NCBI GenBank assembly: GCA_937903155.1
Contig: CALCZU010000030.1
Coordinates: 5,257-69,256 of the forward strand
Direction of reading: 5' to 3'
Source of the DNA: an uncultured Bdellovibrionales bacterium
Lineage (GTDB): Bacteria > Bdellovibrionota > FAC87 > UBA2466
Length of the DNA stretch: 64,000 nt
The notes below the pieces were generated by a model. It saw only the letters and a list, made by a program, of their open reading frames with translations. It ran no database searches and had not been told where the DNA came from. This document shows positions 3,233 through 50,990 of this stretch, piece after piece; within the stretch, counting starts at the first letter, position 1, and every line of letters starts with the position of its first letter. The translations under genes were made by a program, and so were the position numbers.

Positions 3233-3258
3233 CCGGTTTTGCGGTATCGTATGTGCTT

Positions 3259-8081: not shown

Positions 8082-8207
8082 AACCGAATCACGGTTTGAA
8101 TTGTATTCGTTTAGTTTTCACTATTTCAATTGTGATGCTTTAGTTAGGATTTGATTAGTTGTGTCAAAAACCTTCGTTTCATCCGCTCCAAATGTTAAAG
8201 TAAAGGG

Positions 8208-9776: not shown

Positions 9777-9868
9777 GATTTGACTTCTTGCGTAATTTAA
9801 TTGTGAAGAAATTCTCATATTTTGTGGAAACCCTGCCGATAGGTTAAGTGACCGTTCTCTATCGCACC

Positions 9869-11005
9869 ATGAACCTCAAATCTAAATTCACCACTAAAAA
9901 TGTTCTTACTATCTCGGGTATTTACGTATTGATTCTCCTCTGCCTTGAATTCGCGGGGCACTTTACGATCAAGTACATTGAAAGTCGCCGGCCGAGCGGA
10001 ATTTACGCTGAAAATATCATGAGCTTGCACGAGCCCGTGCTCGATTTCGCGCTCAAAAAGAAGGTCGATGAAAATTTTCCCGGTTGGAATGTAAAGACGA
10101 ATGTATTGGGATACCGCATCGGGCAGGATTTCGAACTCGAAAAGCCGAAGGATACTTTACGCATTGTTTTAATGGGCGGCTCGACGATTTTCGGTTGGGG
10201 GGTCGGGAGCGAAGACAGTATTCCTGTGCTTCTTCAAAAGCTCATCACCGACGAAATAGCCAAATCAGGACGCTCAATTGCAAATCTCCCTAAAAAGGTT
10301 GAAGTCATTAATGCGGGCGTACCTTGGTACACCACCTGGAATGAAGCCGCCCTCACTGTCCACCGCGTGATGATGTTGAAACCTGACTGGGTAATTGCCT
10401 TTGATGGTCTAAACGATGCTGCGAAATCCCTCGCTCCCGAATGGAAGCCAATTTACAAAGGCTACGAAGATGTCGCGACCACACTCGTGCGGGAAAGGCT
10501 TGAACATAAAGTCACACTCAAAGATTTTCTTCTCGAAGTCGCAAACTTAAGTCCAACGGTGCGTTATCTCTACGCGAAACTCCACGCCAAAAAAGAAATG
10601 CAAATGGGCGCTTACCACCCAGAAGTTTGGGACCAGTACGTTTACTACCACGAAATCGTCAAAGCGCTTTGCGATGGCAAAGGGGTCCGTTATTCCGCCT
10701 TTCTTCAGCCGGTCATGATGGTCCACAAGCCATTGCACGAACAGGAGCTTAAGACGAACTTCACTAGTATGCGGGATGACAAAATCGCTCAGACCTTTAA
10801 AAAAGTCTATCTGATTGGCGAAGCCGCTCTCGAAAAAGCTTCGTTTAAGATTACGAATCTCGCCGCTGTTTTTGAGAACACGAAAGATGTGATTTACCTA
10901 GATGGGTTGCATTATAATAGGCTCGGCAATATGATGCTCGCTGAGGCTATTTTTAATAATGAAGTCAAACCCAAGCTTTCGACTATGATGAATGCTGGGT
11001 TGTAG
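9869..11005 (+). CDS. SGNH/GDSL-like hydrolase family protein, membrane anchored
   Basis: Block I VLMGGSTIFGWG, block III FDGLNDA, block V LDGLHYN. N-terminal TM helix. ATG 9869 lies inside the GTG-9848 ORF. Confidence 0.65.
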   Translation: MNLKSKFTTKNVLTISGIYVLILLCLEFAGHFTIKYIESRRPSGIYAENIMSLHEPVLDFALKKKVDENFPGWNVKTNVLGYRIGQDFELEKPKDTLRIVLMGGSTIFGWGVGSEDSIPVLLQKLITDEIAKSGRSIANLPKKVEVINAGVPWYTTWNEAALTVHRVMMLKPDWVIAFDGLNDAAKSLAPEWKPIYKGYEDVATTLVRERLEHKVTLKDFLLEVANLSPTVRYLYAKLHAKKEMQMGAYHPEVWDQYVYYHEIVKALCDGKGVRYSAFLQPVMMVHKPLHEQELKTNFTSMRDDKIAQTFKKVYLIGEAALEKASFKITNLAAVFENTKDVIYLDGLHYNRLGNMMLAEAIFNNEVKPKLSTMMNAGL

Positions 11006-11013
11006 GAGCATCC

Positions 11014-11700
11014 ATGAAAAAACTTTTCCTTCTCTCTCTTCTTTGCGTTAGCACGTTTGTTTGGGCAGAACCCACGACTCAAAGTATGGATCAGCAATTT
11101 TTGCAGATGATGCAAAAACGCGCTGAAGAAACTGCGAAAGAAGAAGAATTTAAAAATCCTAAAAAACCAAAAATCGACGGAACTCGCGCTGCTTTAGGCT
11201 CTAAATCTGCAGCGATCCAAATTATCGAGTACTCGGATTTTCAATGCCCTTACTGCAAAAGAGGCGCTGACACCGTGAAAGAAGTGCGTGAGCATTTCAA
11301 AGGGAAGGTTTACTTCCAATTCAAACATCTTCCACTTCCTTTCCACCCTTTTGCGATGAATGCGGCAAAAGTATTTGAAGCTATTGCTTTGCAAGATGCA
11401 AAAAAGGCCTACGCTTACCACGACGAAATTTTTGCTCACCAAGAAGCTCTCTCGGGAGGCGACAATTACCTCTTTGAAGTCGCGAAAAAAGTCGGTGCGA
11501 ATGTCGACAAAGTGAAAAAAGATATGACTTCTGAAAAAGTTCAAAAACGGATCAACGAAGACATGGAAGAAGCGAAAAGTTTCGGCATCCAAGGAACTCC
11601 AGGTTACATCGTGATGGGAGTCTCTCTTAAAGGCGCGTATCCGAAAGAAGAGTTTTATAGCATCGTCGAAAAACGCCAAGCGAAGAAATCAGCCAAGTAA
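11014..11700 (+). CDS. Periplasmic DsbA-family thiol:disulfide oxidoreductase
   Basis: Signal peptide. YSDFQCPYC thioredoxin-fold active site. Confidence 0.8.
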   Translation: MKKLFLLSLLCVSTFVWAEPTTQSMDQQFLQMMQKRAEETAKEEEFKNPKKPKIDGTRAALGSKSAAIQIIEYSDFQCPYCKRGADTVKEVREHFKGKVYFQFKHLPLPFHPFAMNAAKVFEAIALQDAKKAYAYHDEIFAHQEALSGGDNYLFEVAKKVGANVDKVKKDMTSEKVQKRINEDMEEAKSFGIQGTPGYIVMGVSLKGAYPKEEFYSIVEKRQAKKSAK

Positions 11701-34998: not shown

Positions 34999-37900
34999 CT
35001 ATCTAAAATCGATCTTCAGTTCATTTTCTGGATAGAGTTGTTTCAATTCGGCGATTTTATTGCGGTTGAGCGGAATCAGTTCCTTTGCTCTCAGTACCGT
35101 ACTCGTCAGTGGGCTATTGAGATGCAAAAACACGGGGCTTCCAGCTTTATCGTTAGAAGTTCCGAAGAACCTTTTTAAAATTTCGAGTTTTCCGGAATCC
35201 GCCGATTTATTGAGCGGAAAGTGAACATGGATTTCGCGCGCCATGGCTTCGTAAGCATGTCTTAAAGGGAGAATTTTCGAATTCGATTTTTTCGATAGGA
35301 TTAATTTTGGCGTTTTGTCGGTCACTTCTACCGTCGCTTTGATCCACAGAGGCTCTCCTGATTTTAACGTCGCTTCGTTTTCAATATAGATATCCGAAAA
35401 AGCCACGACTTCGACAGTCCCTGTTCTATCTTCTAAGTTCACAAACGCCATGCGATCGCCGCGTTTGGTGATAATTTCGCGCAAAGTAGAAACTTCGGCA
35501 CCGATGAGAACTTCTTTTCCACTCGAGATGCGCGCAAGATTATCAATCGTCGATGTCGTGTAACGATAGAGCTCGTCTTCAAAATCGTCTAGAGGATGGC
35601 CCGTGACGTAAAAACCAATCGTGTCCTTTTCGTATTTTAATTCGAGCAAGCGCGGCCAAGCTTCTTCGAGTTCGTATTCAATTTTTCGTTGGCTGAAAGT
35701 TGAATCAGCATCGCCGAATAAATCGGAGAAAGACGGTTGGTTGTCATCCAAAGTTTTCTGAACACTCGATCCCATTTCCAAGGCCGCGTCTATGGTTTTA
35801 AAAATACTCGCGCGGTTGACTCCAAAACTGTCAAATGCGCCAGCTTTGGTGAGGGCTTCGACGACCCGCTTATTCGTCGTGCGCGTGCTGACTCGAGTGC
35901 AGAGATCAAAGAGATCTTTGAAAGGCCCGCCTTTTTTTCTGGCTTCTAAAATCGAATCGATGGCGACTTGGCCGACGCCTTTGATAGCGCCCAGTCCGAA
36001 ACGGATTTTTTGGTCCGGAAGCACTGTAAAATCAGTTTCACTCTCATTGATATCCGGTTGCAGAACTTGGATTTTGTGGCGTTTGGCATCGGCGATGTAT
36101 TTTGTGATGTTGTCACTGTCATCGCGTTCGGAAGAGAGCAGAGCCGCGTAGAATTCCACCGGATAATGCGCTTTGAGATAAGCCGTTTGACAAGTAATAA
36201 CCGAATAGGCCGCCGCATGGGATTTGTTAAATCCGTACTCCGCGAATTTCGCCATCAAATCAAAAAGTGCCTCGGCTTTTTTCGCGTCGTGATTATTTTT
36301 TGCCGCGCCATCGAGGAAGATCTGCTTTTGCTTGGCCATTTCTTCGGGTTTTTTCTTTCCCATGGCTCGGCGGAGAAGGTCGGCACCTCCAGCGGTGTAG
36401 CTTGCAAGCGACATCGCGATTTGCTGAACCTGTTCTTGGTAAACCATAATACCGTAGGTCTCTTGCAAGATAGGTCTCAACTCTTCAAATTCGTAAACGA
36501 CTTGGATGTTTCCATGTTTTCGGCCGATAAATTCATCGAGCATTACCATCGGACCGGGTCGATAGAGAGAAATAATCGCGATAATATCTGCAAAGCGATC
36601 GGGTTTCGCTTTTTTGAGCAGATCCTGCATCCCCGAGCTTTCGAGCTGGAACACTCCAAACGTGTCGCCCTTCGAAAGCATCTCGTAAGTTTTTTTGTCG
36701 TTTAAAGGAATTTTATAAACGGTAAAATCTAAATCGGGATAAAGTCCCCGAATGAGTCGCTCGGCACTGGCTAAGAACGTTAAGTTTTTTAAACCTAAGA
36801 AGTCGAATTTAATCAGCCCAATCCGATCGGCATTGCCCATATCGAATTGGATGACCATTTCATTATTTTTTCCTTTAAATAAAGGAACATGCTCGACCAT
36901 CGGTCGGTTAGAAATCACAAGCCCCGCGGCGTGAATGGAAGCGTGGCGTCCCAAGCCTTCTAAGGCGCGACAGACTTGAAAAAGTTGCGCCATCTTGGGG
37001 TCCGTCTCGGTCAGTTGTCGTAAGCGGACCTCTTGTTCAAAAGCTTCTTCTAATGAAATGTTAATCGTTTCCGGAACGAGTTTCGCGATGCGATCAATAT
37101 CGCTATTTACCATTCCGAACACGCGTCCGACGTCTCGGATCACACCACGCGCTTGCAGTTTACCGAAGGTAATAATCTGCGCGACGCAGTCGGTGCCGTA
37201 CTTATTCACGACGTAAGAGATAATCTGATCGCGCTTTTGTTTACAAAAGTCGACGTCAAAGTCGGGAAGTGAGATACGTTCGGGGTTTAGAAAACGTTCG
37301 AATAAAAGTCCATGTTCGAGCGGATCGAGATCCGTAATTTTTAAACACCAAGCGATGAGACTTCCGGCTCCGGACCCTCGACCGGGTCCAACAGGGATGT
37401 CGTGATCTTTCGCGTGATTAATGAAATCCGCCACGATCAAGAAGTAACCCGTAAACCCCATGTTATTGATCACTTTGAGTTCGCGTTCGAGACGGTCGTT
37501 ATATTTTTTGTGTTCTTCAGGCGTTAACGCTAAGTAACCTGCTTCGCCGAATTTTTCTTTCAGTCGGTACTCAAGTCCTGCAATCGATTGCTCTTCGATA
37601 AATTCAACCTGAGTTTTTCCACCCGGAGGCTCGAACTTAGGATAGTAATAAATTTTCTTTCCCTGATCGTCGTCAAATTTAAAATCATAGTTACACTGCG
37701 ACGCGATTTCCATCGTGTTAGCGATGGCTTCGGGGCAATAAGAAAAATCTTCTTCCATCACGGCTTGCGGTTTGAAATAGAATTCATCTGATCGGATGCT
37801 CGAACCCGAAGTGTCTTCCATTACGTTGCCGGATTGAATCGACATCAAGACTTCGTGTGAGAAAACATCTTCTCTTTTCAAGTAATGAACGTCCGCCGTC

Positions 37901-38535
37901 GCCACGAGCTTAATATCCAAATCTTTTGCAAGCTCTTGCAGGCGTTGGTTGATCATCATCTGCTGTGGGACGCCGTTATTTTGAATTTCGAGATAAAACC
38001 GCTCGCCAAAAATTTTCTTGTAATCGAGCGCTGCCGCTCTGGCTCGATCCATATCGCCTAGCATGCACAAGTTTGGGATTTCGCCTTTCATGCATGCGGA
38101 TGTGGCAATGAGCCCTTCGGAGTACTGATTCAAAATTTCTTTATCGATTCGAGGTTTATAATAAAATCCTTCCAGATAACCCAATGAAACGAGTTTACTA
38201 AGATTGCGATAACCGATTTCGTTTTGCACAAGCAAAATCAAATGGCTTAATCCGGATTTTGAAGGTAAGTAAGGCGCGAGTTCGTCGTCTCCGCTTCCCG
38301 TATTTTTCATGAGACGCGATGCGGGCGCCATGTACATTTCACATCCCAGGATCGGTTTGATCCCGTATTGCTTCCCCTTCATGTAAAAATCGAGGACCCC
38401 GAACATATTGCCGTGATCGGTTAAGGCAACGGCTTGCATCTTGTCTTCGGCGGCAGCTTTAAAAAGATCGTCGAAGCGAATAGTCGAATCGAGCAGGCTG
38501 AACTGCGAGTGTAAATGAAGATGAGTAAATGCCAC
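34999..38535 (-). CDS. dnaE: DNA polymerase III alpha subunit
   Basis: PHP domain HLHLHSQFSLLDS, GPGRGSGAGSLIAWCLKITDLDP, DFDVDF, HAAGLVIS. 1178 aa, GTG start. Confidence 0.95.
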   Translation of the reverse strand: MAFTHLHLHSQFSLLDSTIRFDDLFKAAAEDKMQAVALTDHGNMFGVLDFYMKGKQYGIKPILGCEMYMAPASRLMKNTGSGDDELAPYLPSKSGLSHLILLVQNEIGYRNLSKLVSLGYLEGFYYKPRIDKEILNQYSEGLIATSACMKGEIPNLCMLGDMDRARAAALDYKKIFGERFYLEIQNNGVPQQMMINQRLQELAKDLDIKLVATADVHYLKREDVFSHEVLMSIQSGNVMEDTSGSSIRSDEFYFKPQAVMEEDFSYCPEAIANTMEIASQCNYDFKFDDDQGKKIYYYPKFEPPGGKTQVEFIEEQSIAGLEYRLKEKFGEAGYLALTPEEHKKYNDRLERELKVINNMGFTGYFLIVADFINHAKDHDIPVGPGRGSGAGSLIAWCLKITDLDPLEHGLLFERFLNPERISLPDFDVDFCKQKRDQIISYVVNKYGTDCVAQIITFGKLQARGVIRDVGRVFGMVNSDIDRIAKLVPETINISLEEAFEQEVRLRQLTETDPKMAQLFQVCRALEGLGRHASIHAAGLVISNRPMVEHVPLFKGKNNEMVIQFDMGNADRIGLIKFDFLGLKNLTFLASAERLIRGLYPDLDFTVYKIPLNDKKTYEMLSKGDTFGVFQLESSGMQDLLKKAKPDRFADIIAIISLYRPGPMVMLDEFIGRKHGNIQVVYEFEELRPILQETYGIMVYQEQVQQIAMSLASYTAGGADLLRRAMGKKKPEEMAKQKQIFLDGAAKNNHDAKKAEALFDLMAKFAEYGFNKSHAAAYSVITCQTAYLKAHYPVEFYAALLSSERDDSDNITKYIADAKRHKIQVLQPDINESETDFTVLPDQKIRFGLGAIKGVGQVAIDSILEARKKGGPFKDLFDLCTRVSTRTTNKRVVEALTKAGAFDSFGVNRASIFKTIDAALEMGSSVQKTLDDNQPSFSDLFGDADSTFSQRKIEYELEEAWPRLLELKYEKDTIGFYVTGHPLDDFEDELYRYTTSTIDNLARISSGKEVLIGAEVSTLREIITKRGDRMAFVNLEDRTGTVEVVAFSDIYIENEATLKSGEPLWIKATVEVTDKTPKLILSKKSNSKILPLRHAYEAMAREIHVHFPLNKSADSGKLEILKRFFGTSNDKAGSPVFLHLNSPLTSTVLRAKELIPLNRNKIAELKQLYPENELKIDFR

Positions 38536-38602
38536 GGTTATCTTACTCTTACTTCGAGGCCATTGGCTTGTCGATTGGCGAGTGTGACGCGATGAGTCTG
38601 TT

Positions 38603-40129
38603 TTAGAGTTTATCTTTCAGGTATTGCTTAATTTTTTCTAAGGTTGCCCCAAATCCAGCAGTGCGTGGCTCGTTCGAAATAACTTCGATGAGTTTGAGAT
38701 GGCTTTCAAGAGTGTTTAAAAGTGTTTTCGCTGTTTTGAGATTGTATCCTTTGCTCTTTGCTTGAACCTCGATTTCTCCTAACTCCGCAATGAGTTTTTC
38801 GGCATCTTTTCGAGGCGTTTCATTGAGTAGGAATTGCGCGCCGCTTTGAGCCGCCAGCCGGGAGCTCACAAGTGAGATCTGAACAATGCCCGCGAAAAGG
38901 TCGACATCGTGGATATTTTCTAAAATGAGGAACTTCCTCGACTCAACCATTCTCGCTTTTAGGTTATCGACGACTTTCTTTTTTAGATAGGGTGTTTCTG
39001 TCGTTTCGATGAGCGGCGAGACCATCTCGAGGACAAAATATCTTGCGACATACGCGCGATATCCTACTGAGATTGGCTGTGAAGAATCAATTTGAAATTG
39101 GTTTAAGAGGGAGGAGAGTCCTTCCACGTAATTTGCTTTGTAAGCGTAGAGTTTCGTCGCCAGTTTTTTAAAATCTTTTTCTAAAGACGGGAGGTCGAAA
39201 AACAAAGGGACTCCGTTTTTGGGCTCTTTTACCTCGTTGGGAATATCTAATTGACCTAAATCCGCTTCTCCCCAACAGACCGGAACGCCTTCGTCAGAAA
39301 TTGCGCACGTGTGGTTTCTGCCGGAGGCAATTTGATTCACTTTTCCTACCAGGGTTTCGGGAACCGAGCACTGTCCCTTGCCGTCGTATCCCCAGCAAGT
39401 GACGTCCCCTTTTTCTGAGAGGGCACAGGTGTGATCATCGCCCGACGAAACATGGGTGATTTTGGACAAACCAGAAGGAACCGTTCTTTGGTAATTACTA
39501 TCTTTTCCCCAACATTTCACAATTCCTTCTTCAGAGACTGCGCAGGTGTGTTGACCTCCCGCTGAAATCTGTTTTGCTTTAAAAGATGTGGGAGGATTAG
39601 TTTGGTTAAAACCGTTGTATCCCCAGCAAGTTACCTGACCCTCTTGCGAAAGCGCACAGTTATGATCTCCGCCCGACGAGATTTGTTTAATTTTCGCGAG
39701 AGTCGGGGGAACATTCGTCTGAGATTCGTTATTCAGTCCCCAACAAAAGACCTGGCCTGCTTCAGAAAGAGCGCAGGTGTGATAATTGCCAAGGGAAATC
39801 TGCCGGATCTTGGGCAAACGGGAGGGAACTGTACTTTGCCCGCTGCCATTAGCTCCCCAACAATGAACTTCTCCCTCGGACAGTGCACAACTGTGAAAAT
39901 TGCCCAAAGAAACCTGTTGAACTTTGGTTAAATGGGAAGGAACCGTACTTTGTTTGTCCGTATTGTATCCCCAGCAAGAAAGTTTACCTGTTTCCGAAAG
40001 TGCGCAAGTGTGTTTGCCACCCGCAATGACTGCTCGTTCATTTTTCTGGGCATTCTCAATCGTAGCGGTGTCCCATCCCAGTCCTATCGTTGCGAATGAA
40101 ATACAAATGGTTAAAAGTATAGTTTTCAT
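38603..40129 (-). CDS. Exported 7-blade RCC1-like propeller protein with a conserved C-terminal helical module (paralog A)
   Basis: Signal peptide. Seven ~38-aa repeats of type QISxGxxHTCALSExGxVxCWGxNxxxQxxVP. C-terminal ~200 aa shared with the three upstream genes, ending EPRTAGFGATLEKIKQYLKDKL. Confidence 0.85.
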   Translation of the reverse strand: MKTILLTICISFATIGLGWDTATIENAQKNERAVIAGGKHTCALSETGKLSCWGYNTDKQSTVPSHLTKVQQVSLGNFHSCALSEGEVHCWGANGSGQSTVPSRLPKIRQISLGNYHTCALSEAGQVFCWGLNNESQTNVPPTLAKIKQISSGGDHNCALSQEGQVTCWGYNGFNQTNPPTSFKAKQISAGGQHTCAVSEEGIVKCWGKDSNYQRTVPSGLSKITHVSSGDDHTCALSEKGDVTCWGYDGKGQCSVPETLVGKVNQIASGRNHTCAISDEGVPVCWGEADLGQLDIPNEVKEPKNGVPLFFDLPSLEKDFKKLATKLYAYKANYVEGLSSLLNQFQIDSSQPISVGYRAYVARYFVLEMVSPLIETTETPYLKKKVVDNLKARMVESRKFLILENIHDVDLFAGIVQISLVSSRLAAQSGAQFLLNETPRKDAEKLIAELGEIEVQAKSKGYNLKTAKTLLNTLESHLKLIEVISNEPRTAGFGATLEKIKQYLKDKL

Positions 40130-40132
40130 TTT

Positions 40133-41800
40133 TTAAATCTTTCCTTTTAGATATTGGCGGATTTTTTCTAAGGTAGCGCCGAATCCTGCTGTGCGAGGTT
40201 CTGTCGTGATGATTTCGATGAGCTTCTGATTTTTTTCAAGGAGACTGAATAACTCTTTCGATTGAGCGACGAGGTTGCCTTGTAACTTTATCTGAGTTTC
40301 GAGTGCCCCAAGGTCAGAGAAAAAATTTTGTGCGAGCTTCTGGCTGTTTTCGTCAACAAGGAAGGAGACGCTATTTTGCATGGCGAGTCGGCATACGGTG
40401 ATCGACGTTTTAAAAATAGAAGCGGTTAAATCAGCTTCGTGAACATTTTCTAACGTCAGAAGTTTTTTTGACTCATTCAAAGAAGTTCGTAAGTTTTTGA
40501 TGGCCTTCTTTTTGATAAAAGGCGTTTCGGTCGTCTCGAGAAGCGGCTCTAGCATTTCAAGAATAAAATACCTTGTGGCGTAAGCACGGTAACCTGCAGC
40601 CAAAGGTTTGGAAGGGTCCAAAATAAACTGGCTAGTGAGTGTACTCAGCCCTTTGATGTAGTTCGATTTATAGCTATAAAGTCTGGTTGAGAGTTTTTTG
40701 AGATCTTTTTCGAGTGACTCGAGTCGAAAAACAATCTCAGGCCCTTGGGAGAGGTCTTCGATTTCTTTTGGTATCGTCGTGATGCCATGATGTTTGGAAC
40801 CCCAGCAGGTAAGCTCTTCTTCTTTTATGGAGACTGCGCACGTGTACCCCTCGCCTAAAAAGATCCTCTTCGTTTTTTTGAGTTGGGGAGGAACGGCTGT
40901 TTGTCCTTTATCGTTTTCTCCCCAGCAGTCGACGTCCCCTTCTTCAGAAAGCGCGCACGTATGGTAGTAGCTTGACTCAATTTGCCGAGTTTTGTTTAGG
41001 CTTAAGGGAACTTTTGTTTGGCCTCGTTCGCCATGCCCCCAACAGGATACTGAACCTTCTTGTGAAAGAGCACAGGTATGGAGCGCACCTAAGATGATTT
41101 GTTTTGCTTTTGGCAAGTCCGGTGAGACGGAAGTCTGTAAAACATTCCATCCCCAGCATTCCACTTTTCCGTCGTCGGAGAGAATACAGGCGTGTCTTCC
41201 TCCCAAGACAATCTCTTTAGCTTTGAGCAAGCTCTCTGGTACTCTATCAATCCAGAATTCAGGATTGCCTTTTTGATCCGTCATTCCGCCCCACCCCCAA
41301 CAAAAAACTGAGCCTTCTTCTGTCACAGCACAAGTTCTTTCATCGCGTATTACAATGTTTTTTGTTCTGGGTAAGTTTTTGGGGACTGCCGTCTGTTTCA
41401 GATCGTTTTTTCCCCAGCAAGACACAATTCCTTTCTCGGATAAGGCGCACGAGTGATGATTTCCGGCAGCGATTTGTTTCGATTTCGCTAGATTTGGGGG
41501 GGCCGCTGTTTGAAGATACTCGTTGTCGCCCCAACACGTAACGACTCCTTCCTCGGAAAGCGAACAAATATGATCTGAGCCCAGTGCAATCTGCACAGAA
41601 GGGTCTAAACGAGAGGGTGTTGAGCTGGCTCCCCAGCAATGGACTCCTCCGAATTTAGAAAGGGCGCAAGCGTGGCGTGCTCCGGCGGCGACTGCGATGC
41701 CACTGTCTTGTGCTTCATTGATAGTGACGTTTGCCTGGCCAAAACCAATGGATGCAAAAATGCTAAAAATGAAAATCAGTTTGAACCCGTTTCTTTTCAT
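40133..41800 (-). CDS. Exported 8-blade RCC1-like propeller protein with a conserved C-terminal helical module (paralog B)
   Basis: Signal peptide, eight HxCAL...CWG repeats, C-terminal module ending EPRTAGFGATLEKIRQYLKGKI. 3-nt gap to paralog A. Confidence 0.85.
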   Translation of the reverse strand: MKRNGFKLIFIFSIFASIGFGQANVTINEAQDSGIAVAAGARHACALSKFGGVHCWGASSTPSRLDPSVQIALGSDHICSLSEEGVVTCWGDNEYLQTAAPPNLAKSKQIAAGNHHSCALSEKGIVSCWGKNDLKQTAVPKNLPRTKNIVIRDERTCAVTEEGSVFCWGWGGMTDQKGNPEFWIDRVPESLLKAKEIVLGGRHACILSDDGKVECWGWNVLQTSVSPDLPKAKQIILGALHTCALSQEGSVSCWGHGERGQTKVPLSLNKTRQIESSYYHTCALSEEGDVDCWGENDKGQTAVPPQLKKTKRIFLGEGYTCAVSIKEEELTCWGSKHHGITTIPKEIEDLSQGPEIVFRLESLEKDLKKLSTRLYSYKSNYIKGLSTLTSQFILDPSKPLAAGYRAYATRYFILEMLEPLLETTETPFIKKKAIKNLRTSLNESKKLLTLENVHEADLTASIFKTSITVCRLAMQNSVSFLVDENSQKLAQNFFSDLGALETQIKLQGNLVAQSKELFSLLEKNQKLIEIITTEPRTAGFGATLEKIRQYLKGKI

Positions 41801-43467
41801 GCTTTTTCCTTGAGATACACTTTGACTTTTTCGAGCGTCGCACCAAAGCCGGATGTTCTGGACTCAGAGGACAAATGCTCGATGAGTTTGGGGCTCGATT
41901 GCAGAATTCCTAAAAGTTCTTTGGCTTGGGATTTCTTATAGCCTTCAGTTTTGAACGCGGCTTCGAGTAGGCCTAAGTCGGTCATCATTTTCTCGGCATC
42001 TTTTCGAAGGTTTTCATCGAGGATGAATTGGGTGGAGTTTTGAAGCGAGAGCTTCACGGCTGAAAACGCGACTTGGTAAATTCCGGAACTGAGCTCGATG
42101 TCTTGAATGCCTGCGATTTCGAGCTGCTTTTTCGAATTCGTGAGCCCTAACTTCAAGTTTTCAAGCACTTTCTCTTTTACGAAAGGCGTTTCAGTCGTTT
42201 CGATCACGGCGGCAAGCATTTCAAGAGCGAAATAACGCGAGAGAAGCGAGCGATAACTAAACCCAGCGGCGACCGACGGATCGACTTTGAACTGAGGGAG
42301 AATCGAAGAAATTCCTCTCACGTAATTGCCTTTATACGAATAAAGTTTTTTGGCTAGTCTATCCAAATTCTTTTCCAGTGCGTCTAAGTTAAAATGGACG
42401 AGACCATCCTCCGTGGTTAAATCGAGCTGATAGGGATCAAATTTAAAGTCGGTCGTACAGAGAACCGGGTGGGTGGTGCTAATGACCGAGTTTTCGGAAG
42501 ATTCCACAGGTTCGGTTAGGTATTTAAGATCTAAATCGACTTTTCCAAGTTCGACGACCGTACTTTCTGAAGGCAGATACTCCACCGTCTGCATGTGCGA
42601 ATTCGCTGTAAAAGCACATACGCTCGTGCCCCTAAGAGAAGCGCTTTTGACTTTGTCGTGATATTCGAAAGGGGTGTAGTATCTTACATTCGTATTGAAA
42701 CCGTTTGGGTAAGCACACGTCACTTTGTATCTCCCTCCACTGGCGCCTTCAGTCCAAATTTTACTATTCGCGCTTTCTGAAATTGTGGCCGATTCGGCTA
42801 AGCGTTTTCGTAGACTTTTTGAAAAGTTTTCCGCCTTGCCGATCGGACTCCAATCTTTGCCAAACTCTGCACACGCTGTCTTGTGCTTATCGAACATGAC
42901 CGGCTCACTCAATTTGTAGATTTTTTTAACATCGGGAAGATACATCACCGAAAAAAACGAGAGGTTAACGACTCTCATTCGCTCTTTCTGAAAATCTTCC
43001 GATAGGATGAGTTTTTTCTCTTTCTCAATGGCGTTTAGGATTTCTTTATCCGCTAACGTCACTCTTTCACGCATTTGTTCAGTCGCTAATAAAGTTTCTT
43101 CCGCTTTTTTAAGTTCATCCTGTCGCAGGTCATTGTTCGTTAAATGGACGCGGAGATTTTTAAGTTTCGAATCCAAAGCGACGCCTGTGGGAATTCCCCC
43201 ATAAAGTCTATCGACGACGCCATAAAAACTTTGAACGCTGCGGACGTAGTTGTCATGATCAGCGGAAAATACTTGGGCTTGCGGCTGTCCTGAACAACCT
43301 CGGACAGGTGGAGGCGCATTGTCTTTACACTTTTCAAAAAAGACTCGATTACCTACGCGATAAACCAACGCGCGAGACGCGTCAGAATATTCCAGAGTTA
43401 GATCTGCAAATCCAGACATAGAGATTGTAAAAACAAGAGCCGCTGTTCTTAAAAAAGATTTTTTCAT
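41797..43467 (-). CDS. Exported protein with a non-RCC1 N-terminal domain and the same C-terminal helical module (paralog C)
   Basis: Signal peptide. ~350-aa head without HxCAL...CWG repeats. C-terminal module LDALEKNLDRLAKKLYSYKGNYVRG...ESRTSGFGATLEKVKVYLKEKA. ATGA overlap with paralog B. Confidence 0.85.
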   Translation of the reverse strand: MKKSFLRTAALVFTISMSGFADLTLEYSDASRALVYRVGNRVFFEKCKDNAPPPVRGCSGQPQAQVFSADHDNYVRSVQSFYGVVDRLYGGIPTGVALDSKLKNLRVHLTNNDLRQDELKKAEETLLATEQMRERVTLADKEILNAIEKEKKLILSEDFQKERMRVVNLSFFSVMYLPDVKKIYKLSEPVMFDKHKTACAEFGKDWSPIGKAENFSKSLRKRLAESATISESANSKIWTEGASGGRYKVTCAYPNGFNTNVRYYTPFEYHDKVKSASLRGTSVCAFTANSHMQTVEYLPSESTVVELGKVDLDLKYLTEPVESSENSVISTTHPVLCTTDFKFDPYQLDLTTEDGLVHFNLDALEKNLDRLAKKLYSYKGNYVRGISSILPQFKVDPSVAAGFSYRSLLSRYFALEMLAAVIETTETPFVKEKVLENLKLGLTNSKKQLEIAGIQDIELSSGIYQVAFSAVKLSLQNSTQFILDENLRKDAEKMMTDLGLLEAAFKTEGYKKSQAKELLGILQSSPKLIEHLSSESRTSGFGATLEKVKVYLKEKA

Positions 43468-43470
43468 CCT

Positions 43471-44991
43471 TTAGACCTTTTCTTTGAGATAGTTTTTAAT
43501 TTTTTCGAGCGTGGCGCCAAAGCCCGTGGTGCGAGCTTCTACGGAAAGTGTTTGGATTAGCTTTGGGTTTGTTTCAAGAAGGTTGAGAAGTTCCTTGGCT
43601 TGGGACTCGGTGTATCCGTTTGATTTCAATTGGACTTCGAGCTCTCCAAGTTTTGTGAGGAGAAGCTCGGCGTCTTTGCGTTGGTCTTCGTTAAGAAGAA
43701 ACTGTGCGCTGTTTTGAATCGCGAGGCGGGAGGCCATCAGCGATATTTTGTAAGTATTCATCCCCAATTCGATATCTTGTATCTCGGAGAGCTCTAAAGA
43801 TTTTTTTGCATCAGTGAGCTCCTTTTTTAAATTCATCACAACTTTTTCTTTGATGAAGGGCGTGTCCGTTGTCTCAACTAAAGGCGACAGCATTTCGAGC
43901 GCGAAGTATCGAGCGAGATATTTTTTATATTCGGCAGCAACGGGAAGTTTTTCATCGATAGGCAACTGAGTGATGAGAGCCGCCAAACCCTTCACGTAAT
44001 TTGCTTTATAAGAGTAAATTTTCTTCGCGATTCGATAAAAGCTTTTTTCTAAGCTTTGAAGGTTAAATTTTACCGGTGTGATTCCTGCTTGCAGTTCACT
44101 CACCTCATGGGGAACTCCAAGTTGTTTATAGTTGTTATCTCCCCAACAGAGAATTTCATCCCCGTCCATCTTTCCACAGGCATGGAAACCTCCCGCGGTG
44201 ACAGATTGCATTTCAGTAGGCATCACGGAGGGAAGGGTTCCGCCATCATGTCGTCCCCAGCAGTAAACCTTGCCGGTTTCGGCTACCGCACAAGTAAAAA
44301 AATAACCGACAGAAATCTGTTTAATCTTCGGTAACGAAGACGGAACGTCCGCTTGACCATCTCTTGAGCTACTGCCCCAGCAAAAAATTTTACCTTCTTC
44401 GGAAAGAGCGCAAGCATGATGCATTCCTGTTCCAATTTGTTTGATCTTGGGTAACTCAGGGACGGCAGGAATAGATTCTTGAAGTCCCCAACACTTTACT
44501 TTTCCCTCAACGGAAAGAGCGCAACTCGCATACCAGCCTGCCGAGATTTGTTTGATTTCGGGGAGGTAAGGAACATCGTTTTGTCCTGATGAATTGATGC
44601 CATAACATCGCACGATCCCGACTGAGGACAAGGTGCAAGTCGTTTGACCGGCTGCCGAGATTTGCTTGATATTGGATCCGGGGACACTGCTTTGATTTTC
44701 GAGGTTTGAGCCCCAACAAATTACTTTACCGGCTTCCGACAGCGCGCAGCTGTGTTCATTTCCTAAAGACACCTGAATGATTTTCGGAAGGGAAGGGGGA
44801 ACTTCATTCTCATGATGAGAACCTTCACCCCAACATTTTGTGACTTTGCCCTCATCGGATAAGGCGCAGTTGTGAAGAGGTCCCGCCGCGATAGAAACGC
44901 CTGTCTCCATCGCTTCTTTCAGATTTGCATCGTCCAGACTAAAGGAGAGACTGGAAAGAATGACCGCCGACAATAAGAGAAGGGTTTTCAT
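43471..44991 (-). CDS. Exported 7-blade RCC1-like propeller protein with a conserved C-terminal helical module (paralog D)
   Basis: Signal peptide, seven repeats, C-terminal module ending EARTTGFGATLEKIKNYLKEKV. 3-nt gap to paralog C. Confidence 0.85.
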   Translation of the reverse strand: MKTLLLLSAVILSSLSFSLDDANLKEAMETGVSIAAGPLHNCALSDEGKVTKCWGEGSHHENEVPPSLPKIIQVSLGNEHSCALSEAGKVICWGSNLENQSSVPGSNIKQISAAGQTTCTLSSVGIVRCYGINSSGQNDVPYLPEIKQISAGWYASCALSVEGKVKCWGLQESIPAVPELPKIKQIGTGMHHACALSEEGKIFCWGSSSRDGQADVPSSLPKIKQISVGYFFTCAVAETGKVYCWGRHDGGTLPSVMPTEMQSVTAGGFHACGKMDGDEILCWGDNNYKQLGVPHEVSELQAGITPVKFNLQSLEKSFYRIAKKIYSYKANYVKGLAALITQLPIDEKLPVAAEYKKYLARYFALEMLSPLVETTDTPFIKEKVVMNLKKELTDAKKSLELSEIQDIELGMNTYKISLMASRLAIQNSAQFLLNEDQRKDAELLLTKLGELEVQLKSNGYTESQAKELLNLLETNPKLIQTLSVEARTTGFGATLEKIKNYLKEKV

Positions 44992-45045
44992 TTCGACACT
45001 TTTCCTTTGAGATAAAGTTTTATTTTTTGCAATCTGCCGAGACTT

Positions 45046-45753
45046 TTACTTTTCTGATTCTGGGTCGATCTGAGCGAATTCTCCGTAGAACTCATTCAAG
45101 CCTTGAATTTCCAGAATGATATTAAATGCCGGATTGGAGTGCTGGATTTTCGAAAAAGCTTTGTAGAGTGTTACGATTTTCCGGTAGAGGGGATCGGCTG
45201 CTTTAAACGTTTTAGGCCGGTCTCCCAATTTGGCAACGGCAATGAGGTTTCCGACGGGAGCGACGAGATCGTTGATCTCTTTGGTCAGATCGGCTGGCAA
45301 ATCAGCAACCTTCTTTAAGTCCTGGAGCAGTCGATGGATTTCAGTGAACGTATTTCCTACGATTTGGCTATAAGGAGTGTCATCAAATCCACGATCCGTC
45401 ACAATAGCCTGATAGAGGGTTAAAACTTCTTTTAAATGCTTCTCATTATTGTCGGACTCGATACTTTTAAAGAAAGCAGTGGAATATCTGAAAGTCACAA
45501 TCAGCTGTTGGTAGCTTCTCATCGTTCCAGCGTGCGCCAAACCTTTAGCTTGGATTGAAGTTTTGATTGTTTCGCAATGCCTTCGGATGAGAAAAATTCT
45601 CGCCGAATCTAAGAGCTCGATATCCTGAGAAAGCTTGTCTCCCAAATAAATAATTCTATCCAGTTGGGCTATTGCTTTTTCTTTTTCAGTTTCTGCGAAA
45701 GTCGTGGGGGTGATTAGTAAAAGTCCGATGAGGGCAATCAAAAAGCGTTTCAT
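45046..45753 (-). CDS. Exported all-helical hypothetical protein (first gene of the RCC1-like operon)
   Basis: ATG 45753 preceded by AGGAGAG. Signal peptide MKRFLIALIGLLLITPTTFA. 54-nt gap to paralog D, with AAAGGAAAAG before its start and no hairpin. Confidence 0.65.
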   Translation of the reverse strand: MKRFLIALIGLLLITPTTFAETEKEKAIAQLDRIIYLGDKLSQDIELLDSARIFLIRRHCETIKTSIQAKGLAHAGTMRSYQQLIVTFRYSTAFFKSIESDNNEKHLKEVLTLYQAIVTDRGFDDTPYSQIVGNTFTEIHRLLQDLKKVADLPADLTKEINDLVAPVGNLIAVAKLGDRPKTFKAADPLYRKIVTLYKAFSKIQHSNPAFNIILEIQGLNEFYGEFAQIDPESEK

Positions 45754-45952
45754 ACTCTCTCCTATCAAAACGAGCCAATGCTTAAGCATTGCTATTGCTC
45801 ACAGAAAGTTGAGTCAATTTAAGAAGATCAACTCATAGACTAAGTGTTTACTTATGCTACGAGTTAAAAAGTCTTCATGAGAGGGTAATACAAATAAGCA
45901 GAGCCGGACTCAATCAGCAAAAAAAATGATTGAGTCGATATGAGTAGATTCT

Positions 45953-46052
45953 GTCATTGCGAAGAGCCGAAGGCGACGAAGCAATCTCGATGCACAAGAA
46001 CGCCTTTGCTATCGGCGAGATTGCTTCGTCGCCTTCGGCTCCTCGCAACGAC
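45953..46052 (-). repeat. REP-like palindromic element (37-nt arms, 26-nt loop) just downstream of lepB
   Basis: GTCATTGCGAAGAGCCGAAGGCGACGAAGCAATCTCG pairs with CGAGATTGCTTCGTCGCCTTCGGCTCCTCGCAACGAC: 35 Watson-Crick plus 2 positions that are G-U only on the minus-strand transcript. The core recurs at 53902-54097. Confidence 0.85.
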
Positions 46053-46062
46053 GTTGGGTACG

Positions 46063-46863
46063 CTATTGCGTATAAGTACCGATGCGCTCGTAACGGACCC
46101 ACGCTTTTCCTTGAGCCCAGTCGGGGAAGAATTTAAAAAATTCGTAGAAAAAGGCGAGCACTCGCATGGGAGGTGAGTAGTCTGCCACCATGCTTGCTTT
46201 GAGTTCCGGGTCCCAACTCGAATACCAGATGAACATTGCTTTTCCTTTAAGATTTTCCATCGGAACAAAGCCCCAGAATCGACTGTCCGAAGAATTGTCA
46301 CGGTTATCGCCGATAGCAAGTAAATGGCCTTCGGGAATGACTGTCTCTTCCATGTAGCGCGTGCGCACATCGTACTCGTGCGAGTTTGTTAAAATCATGT
46401 AATGCTTTTTGCCGGTGAGATTTTCGACAAAGAGCGTTTTATCGTCGGCGTCATCGATGTCGTACATCAAGGAGCGGTCTTTTAATTCATGTCGTTCGAT
46501 TTCTTGTCCATTCACTAAAAGTTTTCCGGAGCGAAATTCGACTCGGTCGCCCGGCAATCCGACGGCTCTCTTTACGAAGGTGACATTCGGATCTCTGGGG
46601 TATCGAAAAAGAATAATATCTCCGCGTTGAACGGATCCTGTCTTAAAAAGAATTTGCTCGGTAAAGGGAATGCGGACATCATAAGCGCATTTCAAAGCGT
46701 ACAGTCTGTCGCCTGTTTTCAATGTCGGTTCCATGGATCCTGTCGGAACTACGTACGGCTCAACAAAAGTCCATCTCAGCGCGAGCAGGGCTAAAATCAT
46801 GTAAGCCATCGTGTGGTTGTCTTTGATCCATTGGATAAACGAATTATTTTGAGAGTCTTTCAT
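46063..46863 (-). CDS. lepB: Signal peptidase I
   Basis: GSMEPTL (Ser box), RGDIILF, VKRAVGLPGD (Lys box), GDNRDNSSDSRFWGFVP. Confidence 0.9.
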   Translation of the reverse strand: MKDSQNNSFIQWIKDNHTMAYMILALLALRWTFVEPYVVPTGSMEPTLKTGDRLYALKCAYDVRIPFTEQILFKTGSVQRGDIILFRYPRDPNVTFVKRAVGLPGDRVEFRSGKLLVNGQEIERHELKDRSLMYDIDDADDKTLFVENLTGKKHYMILTNSHEYDVRTRYMEETVIPEGHLLAIGDNRDNSSDSRFWGFVPMENLKGKAMFIWYSSWDPELKASMVADYSPPMRVLAFFYEFFKFFPDWAQGKAWVRYERIGTYTQ

Positions 46864-47986: not shown

Positions 47987-48709
47987 TTAGAAATTGATTC
48001 GGAATGCAGCTGTCGCATACGACGAACCGAGGTCATACATCGCGGTTGTAGTCGTCACTTTTTTCGGAACGCTGTAATGGTAAATTCCTTCTAATCCAAA
48101 ACTGATTTCGCGGCCCACGATAAAATCCCATCCGATACCCAGTTCAATTCCGACAGTCGTTAAGAAAGTATCATTTCCTGCCGTCACCAGTCGGGTGTTG
48201 TCAAAAGACACGTCGTTGAAATCAAAGGACCCTTGGAGTTTCACGTAGGGAAGAAAACGATTGGAAGTGAAAGTCGCCTGAGTTCCAATTGCGATATTGG
48301 AAGTCGTTAACTTTCCAGAGGCCGCTCCGTTTTTATGAGTTGTTGAAGCTCTGTGAGTGCTGATAACAAAAGACCAAGGAGCAATCGCTTCCCAGATGAA
48401 ATGAAGTCCGATAAGAGGAGCACTTTGAAAATCATTTGCAAAATCGCCCATCGGGATAAACATGCCGATATCGATTCCGAGTCTTCTATCTAAACTTTGG
48501 TAGTGTGCGAGATCCTCTTCTTTGGTCGAATTCGCAAGTCTTCTACGAGATCCATCTCGGGGTTCGGCTTTGGCAGTGGCTTCCAAGTTATCAAGATTTG
48601 CGGCTTCAGTCGTTGGCTCTGCTTCAACGCTTTTGCTACGCAGTCTTTCAGCAGAATTTGCAGCTTGGGTTAATGTCAGTGCCAATAGAAGAAGTGTGAT
48701 TTTTTTCAT
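47987..48709 (-). CDS. Outer-membrane beta-barrel protein (small porin / OmpW-like class)
   Basis: Signal peptide MKKITLLLLALTLTQAANS, alternating beta-strand pattern, C-terminal AAFRINF (terminal Phe). Confidence 0.6.
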   Translation of the reverse strand: MKKITLLLLALTLTQAANSAERLRSKSVEAEPTTEAANLDNLEATAKAEPRDGSRRRLANSTKEEDLAHYQSLDRRLGIDIGMFIPMGDFANDFQSAPLIGLHFIWEAIAPWSFVISTHRASTTHKNGAASGKLTTSNIAIGTQATFTSNRFLPYVKLQGSFDFNDVSFDNTRLVTAGNDTFLTTVGIELGIGWDFIVGREISFGLEGIYHYSVPKKVTTTTAMYDLGSSYATAAFRINF

Positions 48710-48781
48710 CTCATTATTGTCGTCGATTTTAGTGAAATTAAAAAGGGGGTAGTAATGCGAGTGGTCAAATGGGGGAGGCGA

Positions 48782-50203
48782 TTACTCAAGGATGAAGAAT
48801 TCCACTCGACGATTAATCGCGCGTCCTTCTTCAGTGGCGTTACTGGCGCGGGGTTTGCGCTTTCCGTATCCCTGCGTCAGGATGGTTTCAGAACCAATTC
48901 CCTTTCCGACGAGATACCTTTTAACTGAGTTGGCTCGGTCTAGCGACAACTTCAAATTGTAATCTTCGCTATGGCTCGAATCGGTGTGACCTGCGATTAA
49001 GAGTTTTTTGACGTTGTTTTGTTTGATGACGTCAGCGATTTGATCGAGCAAAGAATGACTTTCGGGATCGAGTTCTGCTTTTCCGACTTTGAATTTGATA
49101 ATCTTACGAATCACAAATTTTCTGTCGACTACACTCACATCGTTTGTCGTGTAGTAATGTTTTCGTTCGGTTGATGTGAGACCAAACGTGTAACTGGCTT
49201 GTCCAATAATCTGAAAATCGGGTGAGAAGGGAACACCGGCGACAACGCCTTTACCCAACGCAATATCGGTTCCGAGTAAGAGCGCAAAACTTTTATTTTC
49301 AAGTGGAGTAATTCGACTTCCTACGGAGATTTTTGAAGGCGTTTTTCCAAAACCTAAACCTGAATTGATATGAGTTGTGTTCCAGTATTCGACGAAGGGG
49401 ATAAGATATGCGCCGAGTTTATATTCCGCTCCGAGACCCAGAGTGAACGTATTGTATCGACTGAAATTAAAAAACATTTCGGGTTCGAGGTTTGCCGTTG
49501 TTTTTGAAGTCCGGATTTCCGGGAGATGAAAAAGGGCATTCGCATGTAAAAATAAAGGCAGTCCGCTCGTTTCCAAAAATCCGTAAGTTCCGGCCAGTCC
49601 AAAACCGGCGCTCAATGTTTGTCCGGCCGGACTAAGCGCGTTGAAATTCGAAGCGACTAAAATATTTGCGATAGGTGCTACAAAAAGGCTTTCATTAATC
49701 TTAAAAGAATACATCCCAGAAAAATTAAAATCTCCCAGAGACGAAATCAGTTGTTGAGGATCTCCAAAAGTGGTCGAAGAATTTCTTCTTTCAACCGACA
49801 GTGTCAGATTTTGCGTCGGCGAATAGCCGACAAAAAGACTTTCGGCGATCGTCGTTGCTTTTCCAGGGCCAAAGGTCGGAAGCGGGTTTGTGACCGAATA
49901 GAATTCTCCGCCAATCCCAAAACTCAAAGCGCCGTTTGGAAGACTTTCGGCCGAGCGGACTCGGAAGATGCCGGCTTCCCCCCAGTTGCTTGAATAAATA
50001 TAATTATTCCGGATTTCGGTTTCACCTTCGACCGTTTTGTCTTCGCCCTTTACAAATTCGCGCTGTTCAATGGGTCTTTCTTTGGGTTTTCCTTCTCTTT
50101 GAAGCGTATCTAAATCAGGAGCTGAATCTTCAGCAAAAGCAAACAGCGAAAGAACTATGAAGAAAACGACATATTTTAAGTTTTTCATCGGTTTTGTAGG
50201 CAT
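48782..50203 (-). CDS. OmpA-family outer-membrane protein (beta-barrel plus C-terminal OmpA domain)
   Basis: C-terminal LLIAGHTDSSHSEDYNLKLSLDRANSVKRYL...NRRVEFFILE. Signal peptide MKNLKYVVFFIVLSLFAFA. Start ATG 50203 or 50188; the 50359 ORF start is unlikely. Confidence 0.8.
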   Translation of the reverse strand: MPTKPMKNLKYVVFFIVLSLFAFAEDSAPDLDTLQREGKPKERPIEQREFVKGEDKTVEGETEIRNNYIYSSNWGEAGIFRVRSAESLPNGALSFGIGGEFYSVTNPLPTFGPGKATTIAESLFVGYSPTQNLTLSVERRNSSTTFGDPQQLISSLGDFNFSGMYSFKINESLFVAPIANILVASNFNALSPAGQTLSAGFGLAGTYGFLETSGLPLFLHANALFHLPEIRTSKTTANLEPEMFFNFSRYNTFTLGLGAEYKLGAYLIPFVEYWNTTHINSGLGFGKTPSKISVGSRITPLENKSFALLLGTDIALGKGVVAGVPFSPDFQIIGQASYTFGLTSTERKHYYTTNDVSVVDRKFVIRKIIKFKVGKAELDPESHSLLDQIADVIKQNNVKKLLIAGHTDSSHSEDYNLKLSLDRANSVKRYLVGKGIGSETILTQGYGKRKPRASNATEEGRAINRRVEFFILE

Positions 50204-50309
50204 TTGATTTCTTTTAATTTTACCACTGGATGCTTGGAATCTGCGGATGAATTTTATTATTTTCTTCACGATATGAAATGCTGCGTCAAAATAGGTTATA
50301 CTCTTAAGT

Positions 50310-50990
50310 ATGTTGAAACGTATGAGCCAAAGCGTAACGATCGTTTTACTAATCACCACTCTGGTGTTCAGTGGGTACTTTATTTTTGTTTCCTACCGAG
50401 CGCTTACAGAGTTATCCAAAACCGAGTTACCTCCTTTGCCCCCTCAAAAAGAATTAGCTTCAATTGAGGAACACGGCGGCGGTCATGGTGGCGGTGGAGA
50501 ACATGGCGGAGGCGGAGAGCACGGAGCTCCCCCACCTGCTGAAGGTGGACATGGTGGCGGTCACGAAGCCCCTCCTGCGGAAGCCCATGGCGGTGGAGGA
50601 GAACATGGTGCGCCCGCAGCCGATGCTCATGGCGGTGGGGGCGGACATGGTGAAGCCGCAGCTGGAGCCCCTGCAAAAAAATCGGAGTCTTTAGCCATCA
50701 TCAGCTTTGATGAAGTTTTTGTGAACGTGGCGGCGGATCAAAGATCTTACGGGCTCGGAATCAAGCTCGAACTCGAACTATTTGAAGAGGGCAGCCGAGC
50801 CATCATTGAGAAACGTCAACCTGCGGTAAAAAATGCCATCATTCAAACTTCGCGCGAACAAGATTTTCACCAGCTCAATACGATCGCAGGAAAGCTTTAT
50901 TTTAAAGAGCTTTTAGCAGAGAGAATTAATGAACAATTTGGAGCACCTCTGGTTCGAAACGTCCATTTTTCTTCCTTCTTCCTGCAATAG
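50310..50990 (+). CDS. FliL-like single-pass membrane protein with a His/Gly-rich repeat insert
   Basis: TM VTIVLLITTLVFSGYFIFV. HG-rich repeats GGGHGGGGEHGGGGEHG...HGGGGGHG. C-terminal FVNVAADQRSYGLGIKLELEL...AVKNAIIQ...IAGKLYFKELLAERIN...VHFSSFFLQ, as in the FliL family. Confidence 0.6.
   Translation: MLKRMSQSVTIVLLITTLVFSGYFIFVSYRALTELSKTELPPLPPQKELASIEEHGGGHGGGGEHGGGGEHGAPPPAEGGHGGGHEAPPAEAHGGGGEHGAPAADAHGGGGGHGEAAAGAPAKKSESLAIISFDEVFVNVAADQRSYGLGIKLELELFEEGSRAIIEKRQPAVKNAIIQTSREQDFHQLNTIAGKLYFKELLAERINEQFGAPLVRNVHFSSFFLQ

Follow-up and report, generated by a model that had tools for sequence, protein, structure and literature searches.

Introduction

BLIP-II, the beta-lactamase inhibitory protein II of Streptomyces exfoliatus (PDB 1JTD, 3QHY), is a Sec-exported bacterial protein, folded into a compact seven-bladed propeller with blades of about 40 residues, that binds other proteins very tightly (PMC9146315). 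The ectodomain of CRINKLY4 (ACR4, PpCR4; PDB 7A0J, 7A0K) is an extracellular seven-bladed propeller of the RCC1-like type, in which cysteines of the blades form invariant disulfides (bioRxiv 10.1101/2020.08.10.245050). Here we describe an operon whose products recall both. The operon, five minus-strand genes named A to E, occupies positions 38,603 to 45,753 of a 64,000-nucleotide stretch of contig CALCZU010000030.1 from an uncultured Bdellovibrionales bacterium; this whole stretch is called the window below. Proteins A to D end in the same 205-residue helical domain (the module, or handle) and three of them carry predicted propeller heads; the fifth protein, E, is encoded upstream of the others. 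We conclude that the operon is a minimal copy of an undescribed, conserved extracytoplasmic gene cluster of uncultured Bdellovibrionota-like bacteria. As a tentative proposal, which may well prove wrong, E would be the extracytoplasmic docking partner of the handle and would thereby carry interchangeable binding heads, with the propellers binding targets.

The described systems differ from this locus in several respects. BLIP-II, an inhibitor of class A beta-lactamases, consists of a 28-kDa propeller alone; it lacks a C-terminal helical domain, an E-like partner gene and cysteine pairs in its blades. Because of the additional 205-residue helical domain and the paired blade cysteines, the heads encoded in the window are not BLIP-II proteins. 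CRINKLY4 is a eukaryotic receptor kinase in which the propeller is followed by a cysteine-rich domain, a transmembrane helix and a kinase, and it has no helical handle; its likeness to the window heads implies no shared function. Scaffolds of the cohesin-dockerin type likewise combine several secreted heads, one conserved C-terminal domain and a conserved partner encoded next to them. Dockerins are duplicated calcium-binding loops of about 70 residues and cohesins are beta-sandwiches, whereas the handle and E of the window are helical bundles of about 200 residues, without sequence or fold match, whose mutual binding we propose. Finally, Legionella LegG1/PieG is carried into eukaryotic hosts through type IV secretion, and there it acts on the Ran GTPase. 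Like the window proteins, it is a bacterial protein of RCC1-type repeats that acts outside the producer's cytoplasm; the window proteins differ from it in having Sec signal peptides, short BLIP-II-like blades and another C-terminal domain. LegG1/PieG is among the bacterial RCC1-repeat effectors cited in bioRxiv 10.1101/2023.11.21.568195.

In the literature on RCC1 proteins in Bdellovibrio, we found nothing describing the handle or the E family. Judging from negative results in Pfam, NCBIfam, PADLOC, PHROGs and the PDB, the cluster formed by handle and E appears to fall outside the known kinds, although a more distant known relative may exist.

Operon organization and export signals

Gene E (45046-45753) encodes 235 amino acids from a start at MKRF, which agrees with the gene call behind P0063 (P and L numbers are our handles for proteins and loci, respectively). 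It lies upstream of gene D, from which it is separated by a 54-nt spacer. Gene D (43471-44991; 506 amino acids; P0002) specifies a signal peptide, a predicted seven-bladed RCC1-type propeller and the module, the latter encoded at 43474-44088. In gene C (41797-43467; 556 amino acids), the signal peptide is followed by a head of about 350 amino acids that is not of the RCC1 type, and then by the module (41800-42414). Gene B (40133-41800; 555 amino acids; P0003) again encodes a signal peptide, an RCC1-type propeller and the module (40136-40750), as does gene A (38603-40129; 508 amino acids; P0001), with the propeller at 39221-40129 and the module at 38606-39220. Gaps of 3 nt separate A from B and C from D, while B and C share an ATGA overlap. 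The initial annotation of this region had described four packed minus-strand genes led by a fifth exported helical protein. The open reading frames were found exactly where it had placed them, with the same gaps and overlap, and its leader is gene E, with the features of a signal peptide and an all-helical model. Consensus scans of the operon returned no internal promoter-like or terminator-like sites above the level of shuffled sequence. The packing of the genes and the lack of convincing internal signals make it likely that A to E are carried on a single transcript.

The N-termini of all five proteins comprise one or two basic residues followed by a 12-residue hydrophobic core (Kyte-Doolittle values of 1.7-3.0). 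Signal peptides had been noted previously on the four paralogs; the same features are present in E. Hydropathy analysis revealed no further segment in A to E hydrophobic enough for a transmembrane helix. As far as the sequence tells, A to E would thus be soluble proteins exported by the Sec pathway. Anchoring as lipoproteins was considered and rejected, none of the five signal peptides having a sensibly placed cysteine-containing lipobox when read by eye. A role at the envelope or cell surface, in binding, adhesion or prey interaction, is plausible.

A C-terminal helical domain without named relatives

The last 205 residues of A, B, C and D align without gaps, with 64 invariant columns and 48-55% identity to paralog A. 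All of the conserved blocks quoted for the shared C-terminal module of about 200 residues in the initial annotation are present. The DNA sequences that encode the modules share 51-58% identity. The proportion of synonymous differences (pS) reaches 0.78-0.85, indicating that synonymous sites are saturated, while that of nonsynonymous differences (pN) is 0.31-0.39. Because of this disparity, we conclude that the duplication is old and constrained, as had been proposed when the paralogs were first noticed.

The module had also been thought to match no named domain, and this view holds. No Pfam or NCBIfam family was found on the last 205 residues at E-values up to 0.1, PHROGs gave no match to the module, and PADLOC gave none to the full-length module proteins. 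In sequence searches of the PDB, with profiles built from 4 or 40 module sequences, the best chain had an E-value of 0.17. Modeling followed by a structural search, a check suggested along with the initial annotation, yielded a confident nine-helix fold with no significant PDB relative. The AlphaFold2 model, built from only four sequences, has a mean predicted local distance difference test score (pLDDT) of 85 and a predicted template modeling score (pTM) of 0.85. Foldseek returned no PDB entry below an E-value of 1 and no model of the viral library below 0.3, the partial matches being generic four-helix bundles. On these negatives in Pfam, NCBIfam, PADLOC, PHROGs and the PDB, the handle domain is a protein family without a named relative.

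When 1.84 billion representative proteins were searched exhaustively with HMMER (E-values up to 0.001), only 57 were found to have the module, all of them metagenomic; A, D and B of the window itself are among these. At most 5 residues follow the module match in 46 of the 57; the module thus lies at or near the C-terminus in most. In P0014 and P0023, the module is followed by a cysteine-containing tail of about 165 residues. Upstream of the module, family members have an RCC1 propeller, a head like that of C, or a signal peptide and nothing else. The last category consists of secreted, module-only proteins, exemplified by P0021 and by the product of 10738-11418 in locus L011. Ten module clusters that were looked up are singletons or tiny; they are metagenomic and labeled at most "hypothetical protein". 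A genome scan with a narrow module alignment (A2) matched no genome.

The module-only proteins bear on an alternative reading, in which the handle would itself be the effector (a membrane-active, inhibitory or toxic bundle), the heads would target it, and E would be its periplasmic protector or chaperone, following a toxin-immunity logic. The existence of secreted module-only proteins would agree with such an effector, and E, having a signal peptide, would share a compartment with it. The pore-forming domain of colicins is a C-terminal helical bundle of about 200 residues, arranged around a hydrophobic helical hairpin. However, no such hairpin was found in the module, whose best 19-residue hydropathy window does not exceed 1.42, and neither a colicin nor any other pore-forming fold was among the Foldseek matches. 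Nor did searches return toxin, immunity or defence families, and export appears to be plain Sec export, with no dedicated delivery system encoded nearby. On balance we consider the effector interpretation unlikely; further evidence on it comes from gene E, below.

Propeller heads

The heads of A, B and D match the Pfam family RCC1_2 (PF13540) with E-values of 2e-52 to 3e-64 and scores of 174-212 bits, against a cut-off of 22, as well as WD40_RLD (PF25390) with 160-173 bits, against a cut-off of 150. Each contains 6-7 RCC1_2 stretches and 6-8 CWG motifs. The closest solved relative of the A head is BLIP-II (1jtd_B, E-value 2.5e-34), followed by the extracellular propeller of the plant CRINKLY4 kinase; in the alignment of the heads with the seven-bladed BLIP-II, two segments together cover most of the latter. 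We classify the heads of A, B and D as predicted RCC1-like seven-bladed beta-propellers. In all three (39221-40129 in the case of A), there are two cysteines per blade, which align with the blade cysteine pairs of CRINKLY4 (7a0k_A); BLIP-II has none. The pairs fit an oxidizing, extracytoplasmic compartment.

The head of C, of about 350 amino acids, has no Pfam match and no PDB sequence match. Heads of this type were also found in P0004 and P0019; with P0026 and P0031 the likeness is confined to the N-terminal sequence and the absence of CWG repeats. P0004, the closest relative of gene C, is flanked in locus L001 by a Kelch-like repeat protein, encoded by the preceding gene, and by a sigma-70-type factor (58-912 and 2876-3664). 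These results modify the initial picture of a fixed handle with variable heads: the handle is common to A through D, but three of the four heads share one RCC1/BLIP-II-like fold and C alone differs.

Gene E and its association with module genes

In loci L002 (from a Joint Genome Institute, JGI, metagenome) and L003 (from a Logan assembly), the gene directly upstream of the module genes encodes a protein 45-51% identical to E of the window. Genome context was reached through scans with E. A profile search with E returned 121 clusters of proteins of about 230-250 residues, all unnamed and none with a Pfam domain. The taxonomic range is narrow: the organism labels in the family are only metagenome-assembled genomes (MAGs) of Bdellovibrionales, "Deltaproteobacteria bacterium" and similar, and a scan of species-representative genomes yielded three MAGs, labeled Deltaproteobacteria, Oligoflexales and Bdellovibrionales. 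The scan of JGI metagenomes added 13 loci. E itself has no match in Pfam, NCBIfam, PADLOC or PHROGs, nor a sequence match in the PDB. Its AlphaFold2 model (pLDDT 92) is all-helical, with about ten main helices, and gave no structural match in the PDB with Foldseek (best E-value 0.15, TM-score about 0.2-0.3). The idea that E might be a diverged, stand-alone copy of the module was rejected, as hhalign assigned it a probability of 0.2% with the single sequence and 3% in a profile-profile comparison.

The order of the genes is conserved. Considering distinct loci with at least 1.5 kb of DNA after E (n = 12), E is followed by a module gene in 11, frequently with overlapping stop and start codons. 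Neither a well-characterized family for the module nor a lack of co-conservation in relatives, two outcomes that had been envisaged in the initial annotation, was found, since the module has no named family, the paralogs are old and constrained, and the module genes are co-conserved with E in other genomes. This bears on the possibility that there is no joint system and that the four genes reflect a local expansion of secreted RCC1 paralogs next to a functionally unrelated E. That the homologues are unnamed metagenomic proteins would suit such a view. Yet the order persists down to 34% identity in E, and the same module is kept with a non-RCC1 head and in head-less forms. This possibility is strongly disfavored, and we regard it as very improbable.

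E is also the better conserved partner. In 11 loci compared with the window, identity is 34-55% for E versus 21-38% for the best-matching module, E being the higher in all 11. Such conservation fits a single hub constrained by many partners. It weighs against the effector interpretation introduced above, as arms races between toxin and immunity usually give the opposite pattern. The position of E, upstream of the module genes and not downstream, points the same way, although the presence of one E per array could be accommodated by a protector. Polymorphic toxins have a conserved N-terminal delivery region, a variable C-terminal toxin, an immunity gene directly downstream and a dedicated secretion system. 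Here, in contrast, it is the heads that vary and the C-terminus that is conserved; the small partner is encoded upstream, the export signals are of the Sec type only, and no toxin or immunity family is matched.

A larger cluster in relatives

Hidden Markov models (HMMs) were built for each component and run against all of the fetched loci. They revealed a recurrent order in relatives, F - E - module gene(s) - X - protease, with the module genes numbering from one to five or more. The full cluster is found in L008 (9117-16766), L009 (4711-16310), L011 (6984-14867) and L015 (8757-19653). F is an exported protein of about 250 amino acids, whose N-terminal half is rich in beta structure and whose C-terminal half is helical. 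X (about 575-650 amino acids) has no signal peptide and is predicted to be cytoplasmic; it shows weak matches to tetratricopeptide repeats (TPR) and, C-terminally, to a winged helix. The protease, of about 490 amino acids, is an exported member of Trypsin_2. F, X and the C-terminal approximately 290 residues of the protease are, like the module and E, unnamed families. F and X have no PADLOC or PHROGs match, and the relatives' protease has there a generic match of its trypsin domain only. HMM scans of the 64-kb window detected no homologue of F, X or the protease (for F, even at E-values up to 50). The truly conserved unit is E plus one or more module genes, which in most relatives stands inside the larger cluster.

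A kinship of the module with the helical C-terminal half of F or with the tail of the protease was examined and rejected (probability about 0.1%); the comparison of E with F was weak (10%). In L011 and L012, at 7896-10004 in a Bdellovibrionales-like groundwater contig, three tandem paralogs lie between F and E. They are secreted proteins of about 228 amino acids, 64-67% identical to one another, and match no family. A 505-residue protein encoded in L026 (931-2448) has TPR-like repeats and a C-terminal helix-turn-helix, a layout like that of X; the X profile does not match it.

The secreted protease with which the cluster closes in L008, L009, L011 and L015 raises the question of whether the handle acts in sorting or anchoring, as a large C-terminal domain with protease, F and E as its processing machinery, after the manner of type IX secretion system C-terminal domains (T9SS CTDs) or the substrates of exosortases and sortases. 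The terminal position of the module in most family members and the several cargoes bearing one common tag would agree with such an arrangement. It is harder to reconcile with the window itself, which lacks protease, F and X within 64 kb, yet maintains four intact module genes under purifying selection. Known sorting and docking domains are short tags, small beta-sandwiches or calcium-loop folds, whereas the handle is a predicted bundle of nine helices and 205 residues, far larger and different in fold. No Pfam or NCBIfam model for such domains (T9SS CTD, dockerin, PEP-CTERM, GlyGly-CTERM, LPXTG) matches the last 205 residues. Moreover, module-only proteins would be tags without cargo, and the long extensions of P0014 and P0023 leave the module internal. 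A sorting function strikes us as rather improbable.

Insertion between lepB and dnaE

The operon of the window is bordered on its upstream side by lepB, the gene for signal peptidase I (46063-46863, minus strand; Pfam Peptidase_S26), and on its downstream side by dnaE (34999-38535, minus strand). The DnaE protein is at most 64% identical to any organism-labeled protein (from a "Bdellovibrionaceae bacterium" MAG); other relatives are the DnaE proteins of L026 (83%) and L027 (71%). In L027, dnaE follows lepB after 25 nt (1323-1347) and the junction is otherwise empty; in L026, two unrelated small genes separate lepB from dnaE (8420-10000). Neither locus has a match to E, the module, F, X or the protease, and the genes downstream of dnaE are syntenic between the window and both loci. 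From these comparisons we conclude that the lepB-dnaE junction is variable and that the 7.5-kb block 38536-46062 was inserted there. Such behavior, akin to that of a movable island, is one more feature that the effector interpretation would accommodate.

An inverted repeat (45953-46052; 37-nt arms, 95% complementary, 26-nt loop) is located in the lepB-E intergenic region, on the upstream border of the inserted block. It occurs nowhere else in the window; it could act as terminator of lepB, or else be a scar or an element at the border of the inserted operon. Within the block, the spacer between E and D contains a fossil 3′ tail of a module gene (44988-45032, minus strand; repeat family D14), which reads LQKIKLYLKGKVSK up to its stop codon; this stop overlaps the ATG of D as at a normal junction. 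At the same position after E, L003 has an internally deleted module gene (5481-5819), in which the N-terminal signal and first blade are joined out of frame to the module tail. On account of these two remnants, we conclude that the arrays turn over by duplication and deletion.

An origin of the block from a defence island or prophage was considered and rejected: PADLOC and PHROGs gave no matches, and the window contains no tRNA and no Rfam element. Upstream of the lepB region, positions 47987-50990 encode a small protein resembling an outer-membrane beta-barrel, a 525-residue protein of the OmpA family and, divergently, FliL. These genes represent the ordinary envelope and flagellar context of a diderm, motile organism.

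A proposed docking model

Our proposal that the handle docks heads onto E stems from the fact that several exported proteins share a helical domain, accompanied by a slower-evolving upstream partner, with variable copy number and swappable heads. In its simplest form, the handle would be an assembly or docking domain by which the N-terminal heads are held on E, either in the periplasm or at the cell surface. The majority of the heads would be compact, disulfide-stabilized propellers similar to those of BLIP-II and CRINKLY4, capturing protein or envelope targets, and E would serve as their common hub or as an active core. Duplication, and deletion between the conserved module sequences at the 3′ ends of the genes, lengthen and shorten the arrays. 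In this model we infer that handle and E bind each other physically, where in the cell they do so and what kind of targets are captured; the domain architecture, the export signals, the absence of named relatives, the narrow taxonomic range, the order of E before module genes and the insertion at lepB-dnaE are what the sequences show.

Several observations weigh against the docking model. E has three invariant polar residues (S91, D124, D178) and one nearly invariant (R179), which suggests that E is no passive scaffold but has a site for ligand binding or catalysis. The two partners do not always travel together: in L007, E is directly followed by X, without a module gene, and in L001 the module gene for P0004 has no E within 1 kb upstream, so that module genes are able to occur apart from E. 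Because module-only proteins exist, the handle may act alone. The absence of F, X and protease from the window implies that these components are dispensable or encoded elsewhere in the genome. Lastly, the localization of A to E is read from features of their sequences.

Implications for predatory Bdellovibrionota

Bdellovibrio-like predators attack bacteria through the envelope, and most of their secreted proteins are uncharacterized. From the findings reported here, the handle domain and E emerge as new families of proteins, along with a conserved multi-gene cluster that has no database name. Both families lend themselves well to structural and genetic study, whatever their function, and the rule that a module gene follows E offers a simple means of recognizing the system when further genomes are sequenced.

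BLIP-II, which the propeller head resembles, ranks among the tightest natural beta-lactamase inhibitors known. One can imagine E and the handle, together with F, X and the protease in full clusters, forming a new extracytoplasmic machine of predatory Bdellovibrionota. In such a machine, arrays of BLIP-II-like propellers docked on E would capture envelope enzymes of the prey or of the predator itself (e.g., those of the penicillin-binding/beta-lactamase fold) for inhibition or proteolysis during predation. This extended scenario is speculative and, in our estimation, improbable as a whole. If it is true that the heads bind cell-wall enzymes, the system would represent a new route by which prey are disarmed or the predator protects itself, and may provide a source of new protein binders.

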